NCBI RefSeq assembly: GCF_003334815.1
Contig: NZ_QOWO01000036.1
Origin: Escherichia coli
Lineage (GTDB): Bacteria; Pseudomonadota; Gammaproteobacteria; Enterobacterales; Enterobacteriaceae
DNA: 37,286 nt
Strand: one strand, 5' to 3'
In this document: one piece after another, positions 23,271-26,894 of the stretch
How the letters are laid out: the number at the start of each line of letters is the position of its first letter
How positions within the stretch are numbered: position 1 is the stretch's first letter
The notes under the pieces: model-generated
Told to the model about the DNA's origin: nothing
The model's database searches: none
Seen by the model: only the letters and a program-made list of their open reading frames with translations
Translations under genes and position numbers: made by a program

Positions 23271-24446
23271 ATGCGTCTGTTTTCTATTCCTCCACCCACG
23301 CTACTGGCGGGGTTTCTGGCGGTATTAATTGGCTACGCCAGTTCAGCGGCAATAATCTGGCAAGCAGCGATTGTCGCCGGAGCCACCACTGCACAAATCT
23401 CTGGCTGGATGACGGCGCTGGGGCTGGCAATGGGCGTCAGTACGCTGACTCTGACATTATGGTATCGCGTACCTGTTCTCACCGCATGGTCAACGCCTGG
23501 CGCGGCTTTGTTGGTCACCGGATTGCAGGGACTAACACTTAACGAAGCCATCGGCGTTTTTATTGTCACCAACGCGCTAATAGTCCTCTGCGGCATAACG
23601 GGACTCTTTGCTCGTCTGATGCGCATTATTCCGCACTCGCTTGCGGCGGCAATGCTTGCCGGGATTTTATTACGCTTTGGTTTACAGGCGTTTGCCAGTC
23701 TGGACGGTCAATTTACGTTGTGTGGAAGTATGTTGCTGGTATGGCTGGCAACCAAGGCCGTTGCGCCGCGCTATGCGGTAATTGCCGCGATGATTATTGG
23801 GATCGTGATCGTCATCGCGCAAGGTGACGTTGTCACAACTGATGTTGTCTTTAAACCCGTTCTCCCCACTTATATTACCCCTGATTTTTCGTTTGCTCAC
23901 AGCCTGAGCGTTGCACTCCCCCTTTTTCTGGTGACGATGGCATCGCAAAACGCACCGGGTATCGCAGCAATGAAAGCAGCTGGATATTCGGCTCCTGTTT
24001 CGCCATTAATTGTATTTACTGGATTGCTGGCACTGGTTTTTTCCCCTTTCGGCGTTTATTCCGTCGGTATTGCGGCAATCACCGCGGCTATTTGCCAAAG
24101 CCCGGAAGCGCATCCGGATAAAGATCAACGTTGGCTGGCCGCTGCCGTTGCAGGCATTTTCTATTTGCTCGCAGGTCTGTTTGGTAGTGCCATTACCGGG
24201 ATGATGGCTGCCCTGCCCGTAAGTTGGATCCAGATGCTGGCAGGTCTGGCGCTGTTAAGTACCATCGGCGGCAGTTTGTATCAGGCGCTGCATAATGAGC
24301 GTGAGCGAGACGCGGCGGTGGTGGCATTTCTGGTAACGGCAAGTGGATTGACGCTGGTCGGGATTGGTTCTGCGTTTTGGGGATTAATTGCCGGAGGCGT
24401 TTGTTACGTGGTGTTGAATTTAATCGCTGACAGAAACCGATATTGA
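23271..24446 (+). CDS. ydcO: BenE-family (benzoate-transporter-like) membrane protein
   Basis: ATG at 23271 preceded by GAGGTG; 391 aa, highly hydrophobic. The ORF track extends 87 codons upstream across the ydcN start. Confidence 0.85.
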   Translation: MRLFSIPPPTLLAGFLAVLIGYASSAAIIWQAAIVAGATTAQISGWMTALGLAMGVSTLTLTLWYRVPVLTAWSTPGAALLVTGLQGLTLNEAIGVFIVTNALIVLCGITGLFARLMRIIPHSLAAAMLAGILLRFGLQAFASLDGQFTLCGSMLLVWLATKAVAPRYAVIAAMIIGIVIVIAQGDVVTTDVVFKPVLPTYITPDFSFAHSLSVALPLFLVTMASQNAPGIAAMKAAGYSAPVSPLIVFTGLLALVFSPFGVYSVGIAAITAAICQSPEAHPDKDQRWLAAAVAGIFYLLAGLFGSAITGMMAALPVSWIQMLAGLALLSTIGGSLYQALHNERERDAAVVAFLVTASGLTLVGIGSAFWGLIAGGVCYVVLNLIADRNRY

Positions 24447-26190
24447 CATCCTCCACGCCCTGAAGGACGTGGATCCCTGCTACGTTCAGGCTGTCGCCTG
24501 AATCATTTCGGTGGGTTCCTGCTTCAACGGGCGGCCTGACTGCACCATCTCTCCACAGGCAAGAACGGCGTGCCCCGCCGCTAAAATGTTGCGAGCGCCA
24601 TTTACATCGGCGTTCGCTGTATATCCACATACCTGGCATCTGAATTTACTTTGTGACAGGCGGTTCTCTTTCGCTGTATGACCACAGTACGCGCAACGCT
24701 GGCTTGTATACGCTGGCGGAACAGCAAGCACCTGACCGCCACGCCAGAGCTGCTTGTACGCAAGCTGGCGGCGCATTTCATACCAGCCCTGATCCAGTAT
24801 CGAACGGTTTAAACCTGATTTTGCCCGGACATTGCGCCCCGGCTGGCTGACCGTACCCGCTGCTGACTTTGACATGTTGCTGACCTTCAAATCCTCAATG
24901 ACTATCATTGCGTGGTTTTTGCTGACGGCCGTTGTGACTTTGTGAAGGTAGTCCCTGCGGATATTTGCGATACAGGAATGCAGTCGCTGTATTTTGCGTT
25001 TCTGCTTTTGCCAGTTGTTGCTGAATTTGACCTTGCGGCTTAACTGTCGCTGAAGTCTCGCCAGCTTCTTCTGGTTTTTCTGAAAACTGTTTACAGGCTC
25101 AAAGACTGTGCCATCTGACAGCGTGGCGAGTTTAGCCACGCCAGCATCCAGCCCGACCATTGATGCTGAAGGGTGAACCGGAGTTGATACTTCACTTTCT
25201 GTCTGAATACTGATGTACCACTTACCGCAGGACTGGCTGACAGTGACATTTTTCACAACACCCGTGACCTGACGGCTGTTCCGGTAGCGCATCCAGCCCA
25301 GTTTCGGCAGAAAAATACGGCTGTTTTCCTGATCGAGCTTAACGCCCTGCGGGTAGCGGAATGCATCATTCTGTCCCCGCTTTTTGAATCGGGGAAAAGC
25401 AGCCCGCTTCCGGAAGAAGTTTTTGTAAGCCCGCTCAAGGTCTTTCAGTGACTGTTGCAATGGCTGTGAGGGAGAATCTTTAAGCCATTGCGTTTCAGTG
25501 GCATTTTTCCACTCAACCAGCCAGGAAGCCATTTTCCCGTAAGGGATGTATTTATTACCGGCCTCATGATTCTCATTCTGACGTGCCAGAGCACGATTGA
25601 AAACGAAACGACATGCGCCTGCGAAGCGCCTCATTTCACACTCCTGTTGACCACCGGGTCTTAACTGGAATTTAAATGCCTGTAATCGTTTCACAGGTCA
25701 AATGATACTTTGGTCTGTGAAAAAAGAAACCGATATCCGGCGTGGAAGGCATTGTGTTTTCCTGATGCATGTTCACCTGCTCTTTGTCACCAGATACCGA
25801 CGCCAGATTTTTGACCATGACGCGACAGAAAAACTACGCACTTACTTTTCAAATGTATGTGCTGATTTTGAAGCTGAACTGGTTGAAATGGATGGCGAAC
25901 CAGATCACGTCCATTTGTTAATTAACTATCCTCCCAAACTGGCGATATCCAGTCTGGTAAACAGCCTCAAAGGCGTATCGGGTAGGTGACTGCGACGAGA
26001 TCGACCAGATATTGCATTCAGGTATTACTACAAAGGCGTTTTGTGGAGTCCTGGCTATTTTGCCAGTAGCTGCGGAGGTGCGCCAATATCCGTCATCCGC
26101 CAATACATTGAACAACAGCAAACACCTGGTCAGGTGGAAAACCGCGCCTTATATCCCCGCCCTGAAGGATGGGGTTTTACGGCGCACCGG
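24440..26190 (-). mobile_element. IS200/IS605-family insertion sequence (IS609-like), about 1.75 kb; boundaries approximate
   Basis: Divergent tnpB and tnpA; no terminal inverted repeats; subterminal hairpins at both ends share the 12-mer CGCCCTGAAGGA (24456-24467 and 26158-26169); sits between the ydcO stop and the ydcL terminator. Confidence 0.6.
24486..25694 (-). CDS. insQ: TnpB (IS609 OrfB; RuvC-like RNA-guided nuclease family)
   Basis: 402 aa from GTG 25694 (382 aa from ATG 25634, which has an AGGAG RBS). Conserved N-terminus [10 protein letters not shown]; RuvC-I GLDAGV, RuvC-II IEDL, zinc finger CAYCG...CQVCG, Ruv[13 protein letters not shown] all present. Confidence 0.8.
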
Positions 26191-26208
26191 ATAAAAAGCG
26201 CCATCTAA
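25702..26208 (+). pseudogene. IS200-type TnpA (Y1/HuH transposase) interrupted by one in-frame TGA
   Basis: ATG at 25702; 95 codons containing the HuH motif (PDHVHLLINYPP), then TGA at 25987-25989, then the same frame continues with ...LWSPGYFASSCGGAPISVIRQYIEQQ (conserved catalytic-Tyr region) to TAA at 26206-26208. Confidence 0.65.
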
Positions 26209-26217
26209 CGATGGCGC
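26193..26217 (-). terminator. Intrinsic terminator of ydcL
   Basis: Minus-strand RNA: GCGCCAUC-GUUA-GAUGGCGC followed by UUUUUAU, starting 9 nt after the ydcL stop. Confidence 0.6.
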
Positions 26218-26225
26218 GTCTGGAA

Positions 26226-26894
26226 CTACTTTTTGTTAACGTCAAACATGGTGGCATCGGTCGCCATGTCATCAATAACTTGTTTAATATTTTCGAAAGC
26301 CATTGGCGTACTTTCGTTATTCAGGTCTTTACCTTCGCCCTGACGAACGACTTTGATAACCGGTTTATTAGTCGCTGCATCAATCAGCTCACCTTCAAAA
26401 TAGAGGCGAGTATCCATGGTACGGTGGACTGTAGCCATTTGCGTCCCCGCAACCACTAATGCAACAGGAACCACTTCATAGAATTGCAGCCCTTCTTTGC
26501 TGGTATCTACACCGGTAATGGCCCCACGGAAAATCAGACTACGCGGCCCAGCGGTGGTAACCAGTGGTTTACGCTGCGCTATCGCTTCTTTCATTTCGGT
26601 GTTGGTATAGTTCAAAATTTTATCCAGAACTTTCTGCCCTACCTGGGTCGACGGTTTCGGTACCGGATAATAAGTGATTGGGTTCCAGACGATGCTGTCA
26701 TATTTGCTTTGATCAAAACTCGGGTCTACCCAACGTAAAACAGGTTTACCTGTAGCCGAGGTTGTTTCTTTTAAATCAGAGTAATTGTTTAAAAAACCAG
26801 AATATTTATCTGGCTGGGTGATTTTAGAGGCACAACCAGACAGAGCCAATAAGCCGCATAAAGCTGCAACTTTCGCAAATGATGTGGTACGCAT
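26226..26894 (-). CDS. ydcL: Lipoprotein
   Basis: 222 aa; signal peptide with lipobox (MRTTSFAKVAALCGLLALSGCAS). Confidence 0.85.
   Translation of the reverse strand: MRTTSFAKVAALCGLLALSGCASKITQPDKYSGFLNNYSDLKETTSATGKPVLRWVDPSFDQSKYDSIVWNPITYYPVPKPSTQVGQKVLDKILNYTNTEMKEAIAQRKPLVTTAGPRSLIFRGAITGVDTSKEGLQFYEVVPVALVVAGTQMATVHRTMDTRLYFEGELIDAATNKPVIKVVRQGEGKDLNNESTPMAFENIKQVIDDMATDATMFDVNKK

Follow-up and report, generated by a model that had tools for sequence, protein, structure and literature searches.

The window analysed here, a stretch of 37,286 nucleotides of an Escherichia coli contig (NZ_QOWO01000036.1), contains a copy of the insertion sequence (IS) IS609, the transposase gene of which, tnpA, is interrupted by an in-frame opal codon. 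The window is from E. coli K-12, matching W3110-derived genomes at 100% identity across 24,987 bases, and the local gene order is sutR, ydcO, insQ (tnpB), tnpA, ydcL, tehB, tehA. In the MG1655 record (NC_000913.3) an IS609 mobile_genetic_element is placed at 1503161-1504908, with the length (1,748 bp) and the position of the element in the window, and yncK (b4578), listed as a pseudogene within IS609, and insQ (b1432) are given at the same positions. The tnpA of the window and yncK of MG1655 are the identical object, with no differences between them; yncK is presumably also the gene named insP. The NCBI automated annotation (PGAP) flags tnpA as a pseudogene as well, with the remark 'internal stop'. 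There is little doubt that the tnpA of the window is an ordinary, already annotated nonsense pseudogene.

Both the pseudogene status of yncK and the immobility of IS609 are already known. The behaviour of IS609 is covered in two papers, Umenhoffer et al. and Lee et al. 2016 (PMC5009759), and little was found on yncK, insP or insQ beyond the IS609 papers. The IS609 transposase gene has been described as having a stop codon and no transposition activity (PMC2891674, there as data not shown), and none of the 758 IS insertions recorded in mutation-accumulation lines was an IS609 event (PMC5009759). IS609 is tolerated in 'IS-free' chassis strains (PMC2891674) because the element is known not to move. 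The original prediction, made from the sequence of the window, had offered two readings of the stop: a leaky codon, read through to give trace transposase, or a simple nonsense mutation that immobilises the element. The second is borne out by the annotation of b4578 and by these publications (PMC2891674, PMC5009759). What is added here to the record, none of it contradicting what is there, is the ancestral codon, the loss of the stop at codon 144, a change in the hairpin at the left end (LE) of the element, and the population distribution of the allele.

The features of tnpA in the window are as follows.

25702-26133, + strand: tnpA pseudogene yncK (b4578), codons 1-143 and codon 144, the former natural stop
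25906-25914, + strand: HUH motif H69-V70-H71 (CAC GTC CAT), aligned with the HiH motif of IS608
25987-25990, + strand: premature opal codon 96 (TGA, 25987-25989) and the C that follows it (25990); TTA (Leu) to TGA by T>G at 25988
26104-26106, + strand: codon of the catalytic Tyr135 (TAC), in QYIEQQ, 3' of the stop; aligned with Y127 of IS608 and invariant in relatives
26131-26133, + strand: codon 144, CAG (stop loss); TAG in the O157:H7 copy and in several copies at locus C (yoaG-yeaR)
26134-26208, + strand: non-native tail, codons 145-168 and TAA (26206-26208), crossing the element boundary at 26190/26191 into host DNA

The frame from 25702 to 26208 (+) has 168 codons, and codon 96 is the sole internal stop in its translation, which is the single in-frame TGA followed by C that had been predicted. 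The frame was also predicted to be intact on either side of this codon, and this is the case. With the stop masked, the protein matches the Pfam family Y1_Tnp (PF01797) over the full model (1-121 of 121, E = 2.7e-40); the match covers residues 18-139, on both sides of the stop, and is far beyond chance. The alignment with the solved TnpA structures of IS608 (2a6m), ISDra2 (2xm3) and Sulfolobus (2f4f and 2ec2) is continuous across the stop. A Leu-repaired form of 143 aa scores 143 bits on NCBIfam NF033573, for which the cutoff is 55. The HUH motif lies before the stop (H69, H71) and the catalytic Tyr after it (Y135), in agreement with the prediction; in the alignment of relatives V70 and H71 are invariant and H69 is nearly so. 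The uninterrupted open reading frame (ORF) of about 140 aa that characterises the family is absent, with TGA at codon 96 and the natural stop lost at codon 144. On sequence evidence, yncK is an IS200/IS605-family TnpA (Y1 HUH) by descent, but a pseudogene.

Leucine occupies residue 96 in all 19 of the close relatives aligned, which are 80-98% identical and come from Salmonella, Proteus, Photorhabdus, Morganella and others, and codon 96 is TTA in every copy examined that does not have TGA. The natural end of TnpA is residue 143 in 19 of 19 relatives, not a point near residue 95. The interval 25702-26208, which had been given as tnpA, therefore holds the frame in full, but its last 25 codons (26131-26205) are a stop-loss extension: with the stop at codon 144 lost, the frame runs on and ends in host DNA. 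Two further substitutions, Val27Leu and Val106Phe, are present in the K-12 haplotype. CAG replaces TAG at codon 144 in most E. coli IS609 copies (for example L002, L032, L039 and L047-L049; L numbers denote sampled copies), and as a result their ORFs enter the flanking DNA and have locus-specific lengths (168, 204, 213, 222 aa etc.). TAG and CAG at codon 144 have each been seen with both TTA and TGA at codon 96, combinations which appear to be another sign of recombination among IS609 copies.

As the mechanism of inactivation, a single T>G transversion at 25988 changed Leu96 (TTA) of TnpA to an opal stop and cut the predicted product to 95 residues. In the fragment predicted from the sequence the HUH motif is kept and Tyr135 is absent. 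Both the HUH motif and the Tyr are required for the cleavage and rejoining of single-stranded DNA, as established from work on IS608 and ISDra2, and a fragment with the one and without the nucleophile should be capable of neither. Because the K-12 record holds a single copy of IS609, there would be no TnpA in trans and the element would be stuck between ydcO and ydcL. A truncated TnpA and no source in trans would together make the element immobile, in agreement with the literature. Two more defects at the locus probably act in the same direction, these being the lost stop at codon 144 and the destabilised hairpin at the tnpA end of the element, which TnpA must recognise; a repaired enzyme or element could be expected to suffer from the tail at the C-terminus and from the weaker LE hairpin.

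The enzyme could also be not lost but recoded or split, with UGA decoded as selenocysteine (Sec), or with the 95-aa N-terminal fragment complemented in trans by a C-terminal fragment initiated separately (e.g. at TTG 26041). The TnpA of IS608, of the IS200/IS605 family, is a dimer in which each active site combines the HUH of one subunit with the Tyr of the other, so active sites in this family do form across subunits, and an ORF of 55 codons from 26041 spans the Tyr region. However, there is no convincing ribosome-binding site ahead of 26041. For Sec, the ancestral residue is Leu, not Cys or Sec, no SECIS-like hairpin is present and the fold after the stop is no better than that of shuffles, and an Rfam scan found no match in tnpA. 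A recoded or split enzyme is so improbable that it can practically be set aside.

The presence of the same TGA in other E. coli was investigated by megablast with 55-mers in which the variant base was centred, such that seeding occurs only on the same allele. Of 5,426 complete genomes, 2,729 carry the TGA allele, in 3,377 copies (up to 4 per genome), and the TTA allele, which accounts for ~65% of the copies in E. coli, was found 6,359 times in 3,896 genomes. Together these make 9,736, which is the total obtained with allele-blind 57-mers. Both alleles are present in ~1,640 genomes and TGA only in ~1,090. The ydcO-ydcL site is empty in ~2,044 of 5,417 genomes, including O157:H7, CFT073, F11 and others, and occupied in ~3,370. 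The TGA allele is old and common, making up about a third of the E. coli IS609 copies.

The knock-outs of tnpA were tallied in nine distinct alleles sampled at the ydcO-ydcL locus.

Window and L010: TGA96 as the only lesion, with a different backbone in each
L007: TAA76 and TGA96
L005 and L012: 5-bp deletion and TAA76
L008: TAA76 and a 1-bp deletion
L009: TAA62
L011: another, different 1-bp deletion
L006: tnpA still open

The gene tnpA (432 nt) is broken in eight of the nine, by at least six independent lesions. At least five of these are other than TGA: the E62* and Y76* changes to TAA, the 5-bp deletion, and two different 1-bp deletions. The decay of tnpA has followed many routes, TGA being merely the commonest. 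The gene tnpB (1,209 nt) is open in eight of the nine alleles, with one knock-out. Nei-Gojobori estimates of the ratio of nonsynonymous to synonymous substitution (dN/dS), from 12 sequences picked by the spread of their tnpA-region identity, are ~0.75-0.8 for tnpA and ~0.32-0.36 for tnpB. At ydcO-ydcL, in what is a small sample chosen on tnpA identity, this suggests that tnpB has been kept after the loss of the transposase.

It could be argued from these data that inactivation was selected, the loss of TnpA having been favoured in a domestication that fixed the tnpB/guide-RNA module; the TGA null allele would then have become more frequent, and been copied among the IS609 copies, through the benefit to the hosts or the element of a TnpB locus that does not excise. 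The at least six independent knock-outs in tnpA against one in the longer tnpB and the dN/dS of tnpB (~0.33) against that of tnpA (~0.8) would fit, as would the homogenisation of the TGA-bearing segment among the copies within a genome. However, the sample is small and biased, and tnpB is broken in many of the copies at the yedK site (described below) by a 7-bp deletion and stops, and is thus not kept everywhere. The same data are explained by unbiased gene conversion and the neutral decay of a transposase that is not needed, and selected inactivation is unlikely.

The exact 95-aa product of K-12 is encoded in 30 contigs, all of which have the ydcO-ydcL context. Confinement of TGA to ydcO-ydcL was considered and rejected, as three more loci have the same stop, on Val27 backbones: one next to yedE/TusA/SRAP (the 'yedK' site), one at yoaG-yeaR (locus C), and one next to a 6-phospho-alpha-glucosidase gene (locus D). 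One genome holds three TGA copies. The view that loci C and D are young was likewise abandoned, since they are occupied in 1,099 and 300 genomes, respectively. The yoaG-yeaR site is polymorphic, with five sampled alleles having TTA, three of which are intact 143-aa genes.

The TGA copy L029, at yoaG-yeaR, has locus-private variants at both ends (24465-24663, and 26158), while its interior from 24929 to 26050 agrees with the yedK copy in that genome at every one of the 27 informative sites, TGA included. This interior is evidently an ectopic gene-conversion tract of 1.1-1.5 kb that carries the stop. Transposition of TGA-bearing elements, which the placement of L029 near L028 in a neighbour-joining tree had brought into consideration, was rejected for this copy by site-by-site comparison with TTA alleles from the same locus. 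The ydcL copy in the genome of L029 is also the same as the yedK copy, from 24709 to 26049, and the copies L042 and L043 do not differ at all over the tnpA side but do so at 85 positions over the tnpB side. The IS609 copies in E. coli therefore appear to evolve in concert, and the presence of a null allele at several fixed sites is accounted for with no need for the element to be active. TGA is an old null allele, inherited vertically at fixed sites and passed between sites by gene conversion.

In one clade of yedK-site copies (L036-L045), the tnpB side (the equivalent of 24443-25694) is ~7% diverged from that of all other copies, with 81-93 differences, the 7-bp deletion and premature stops, and the tnpA side of the same clade has only 0-8 differences. 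Two IS609 lineages may have been combined into a mosaic in these copies, or the tnpA half of an old copy may have been overwritten.

The other reading offered in the original prediction depends upon the quality of the stop. The tnpA stop has a leaky context, UGA then C, which had been called the weakest in E. coli. This holds in part: the inefficiency of termination with C at the +4 position, above all after UGA, is well documented (PMC5289835), and the release factor 2 (RF2) of K-12 terminates weakly at UGA (PMC5373646), but in a library of MG1655 reporters it is +4G, not C, that lowers termination efficiency most (PMC11126739). In MG1655 reporters, read-through of premature TGA codons inserts mostly Trp and reaches several percent at hotspots (PMC11126739). 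Some read-through of UGA-C is to be expected in K-12, with its weak RF2, mainly by insertion of Trp, which would give a 168-aa L96W protein with a 25-aa foreign tail. This protein we judge to be biologically irrelevant.

If the stop were instead an attenuator, low-level read-through by tRNA-Trp, stronger where RF2 is weak or in conditions that favour reading of UGA, would give trace full-length TnpA, and the element would be rarely mobile, with damage to the host limited. Poor termination at UGA with +4C, the weak RF2 of K-12 and the insertion of mainly Trp in MG1655 would all serve this, and the allele does make up 35% of copies, at four or more loci; at the DNA level, 29 of 30 TGA copies have no further break in the downstream frame. 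However, a recoding stop would be conserved among homologues, and TGA is found in none of the 19 relatives, and 65% of the copies in E. coli lack it. Nor is the stop followed by a stimulatory or SECIS-like structure, the minimum free energy of 25981-26050 being no better than that of shuffles (z = +0.41). The multi-locus case that could be resolved is one of gene conversion, L007 has gained a second stop on a TGA background, and no movement of IS609 has been recorded in K-12 (PMC2891674, PMC5009759). The product would also bear the 25-aa foreign tail and Trp at a Leu that is invariant in close relatives, and would act on an element with a weakened LE hairpin.

Downstream of the stop, in codons 97-143, the proportions of synonymous and nonsynonymous differences are both very low (pS 0.005, pN 0.0046), which is too few events for a view on selection in a segment homogenised by gene conversion. 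The changes among TGA copies include V106F, P117A, V131I, I136V and one frameshift, and ten further copies of the K-12 haplotype are nearly identical and uninformative on constraint.

On biochemical grounds, read-through could thus plausibly yield trace transposase in K-12, but neither evolutionary nor experimental evidence speaks for it, and attenuation by a leaky stop is regarded as very unlikely. That the stop is biologically meaningful as a leaky source of functional transposase is unsupported, and the chance of it is slight. Also slight is the prospect that the opal codon is a conditional throttle, by which ~1% read-through under weak RF2, cold, starvation or loss of RF3 (release factor 3) gives an active Trp96 TnpA and rare mobility. 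Were the throttle real, 'dead' IS609 copies would be conditionally mobile, and this tolerance would help to explain an allele present in a third of all E. coli IS609 copies. A leaky stop would provide an example of an insertion sequence throttled by read-through, and the 'dead' IS609 of laboratory strains would not be strictly immobile.

Several points weigh against seeing tnpA as no more than a gene with an old null mutation. Position 96 is not strictly invariant, the residue aligned to Leu96 in the distant solved structures being I, L, L or R. The dN/dS contrast comes from just 12 sequences and is subject to ascertainment bias. Termination at UGA-C is poor and the RF2 of K-12 is weak at UGA, so that transcription of the gene, if it occurs, would probably lead to some full-length protein. 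Gene conversion has been established at one locus only, and trans-mobilisation of a TGA copy by co-resident TTA copies is possible at the yedK and 6-phospho-alpha-glucosidase sites. Lastly, the fact that 29 of the 30 TGA copies keep an otherwise open frame might be taken for constraint. It would seem to carry no weight as such, because there is hardly any divergence, the copies were chosen for an identical N-terminus, and the segment is homogenised by concerted evolution.

The nonsense pseudogene lies within an element whose other features are as follows.

24443-26190, no strand assigned: IS609 element, 1,748 bp, between ydcO and ydcL; copies at other loci diverge beyond these ends, and CFT073 has the empty site
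24452-24473, - strand: hairpin of the right end (RE), near the tnpB end, TCCACGTCCT-TC-AGGGCGTGGA on the tnpB-sense strand; inverted repeat, DNA fold of -7.7 kcal/mol
24486-25694, - strand: tnpB/insQ (b1432), 402 codons, open, RNA-guided nuclease family (NCBIfam guided_TnpB NF040570, 380 bits against a cutoff of 100)
26155-26174, - strand: LE hairpin, near the tnpA end, with T at 26170 and a weakened stem; DNA fold of -6.0 kcal/mol
26191-26194, - strand: target tetranucleotide, TTAT on the tnpB-sense strand (ATAA on +), in the host DNA adjoining LE; present at 7 of 7 insertion sites compared
Empty ydcO-ydcL site, tnpB-sense strand: TTAT then TATCGGTTTCTGTCAG; the restored site expected after excision is CCGATAATAAAAAGC

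The empty site in CFT073 reads CCGATA and then ATAAAAAGCGCC, and there is no target duplication. After the RE hairpin on the tnpB-sense strand, the element ends with GGATGTCAA. The core CGTCCT-TC-AGGGCG is common to the LE and RE hairpins. In copies at other loci (L002, L004) the LE hairpin has C at 26170 and a fold of -9.6 kcal/mol, and the T at this position is particular to the ydcL locus, except in L010 and L038. The base after TTAT varies among the seven insertion sites, and TTAT is present once in the empty site. The element therefore has the hairpins near both ends, the fixed adjoining target and the lack of both terminal inverted repeats and target duplication that define IS609; tnpB lies beside tnpA, and the interval carries the IS609 label in the reference record.

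The start codons of tnpB (GTG, 25694, -) and tnpA (ATG, 25702, +) are divergent with 7 bp between them, so each promoter must sit within the other gene. A search for a sigma-70 consensus promoter for tnpA found none in 25300-26300, a result that is uninformative. Among the 12 distinct sequences first sampled, tnpB is open in 11. Some gene callers start tnpB at an internal ATG (382 aa), which has AGGAG ahead of it. In some genomes an IS3-family element is inserted in the tnpB of the same IS609 copy (L021; strain MS 196-1). The only Rfam matches, to HgcC (22 bits, E = 0.026) and sot0042, are sub-threshold; they lie at 24433-24549 (-), a stretch that takes in the tnpB 3' end and the element's right end. 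HgcC and sot0042 are archaeal RNAs associated with tnpB 3' ends, and the matches are consistent with a TnpB guide-RNA scaffold at 24433-24549 that is not captured by the Rfam models.

Just beyond the element, at 26198-26217, the sequence GCGCCATC-TAAC-GATGGCGC makes a perfect hairpin of 8 bp; with the run of T after it on the - strand, it looks like the terminator of ydcL. The extended tnpA frame terminates within this hairpin (TAA, 26206-26208). In L014 (strain HH45, ~350-395) the ydcO-ydcL site keeps only the first 19 bases of the element (TTGACATCCTCCACGCCCT), followed by GGCT, a run of ~19 C and the ATAA target, which may be an unusual deletion or an assembly artefact.

For K-12 itself these observations are of little consequence, the gene being a catalogued pseudogene and the element known to be immobile. 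Of modest interest is that one transposase null allele has become common to thousands of E. coli genomes and to several chromosomal sites via concerted evolution, and that the neighbouring RNA-guided nuclease gene, tnpB, is usually still open at the K-12 locus.

The E. coli gene for RF2, prfB, shares the four-base signal UGA-C, a poor terminator (PMC5289835). In prfB the weak stop is conserved and goes together with a programmed +1 frameshift, which an upstream Shine-Dalgarno sequence stimulates. The tnpA stop, in contrast, is a derived polymorphism, and no stimulatory element was found with it.

The TnpA proteins of IS608, from Helicobacter pylori, and ISDra2 belong to the same fold family by sequence (E of ~1e-19 to 1e-24), and their HUH and Tyr residues align with those of the window TnpA, although identity is only ~30% and the window copy is non-functional. 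IS608 and ISDra2 are like IS609 in having imperfect hairpins near both ends and inserting 3' of a fixed tetranucleotide with no duplication; the target is TTAC for IS608 and TTGAT for ISDra2, compared with TTAT for IS609 here. The right end of IS609, finishing in TCAA, is also like that of IS608. The genes tnpA and tnpB are divergent in IS609, whereas they are co-directional in IS608 and ISDra2.

The closest comparison is with the intact IS609 copies, which encode a TnpA of 143 aa (WP_000604943.1 in O157:H7 and WP_000604932.1 at yoaG-yeaR). These share ~97-98% DNA identity with the copy in the window, as well as the divergent layout, the 7-bp spacing of the starts and the same ends. They differ from it in having TTA at codon 96, TAG at codon 144, Val27, Val106 and an intact LE stem; the counterparts in the window are TGA, CAG, Leu27, Phe106 and a weakened stem.

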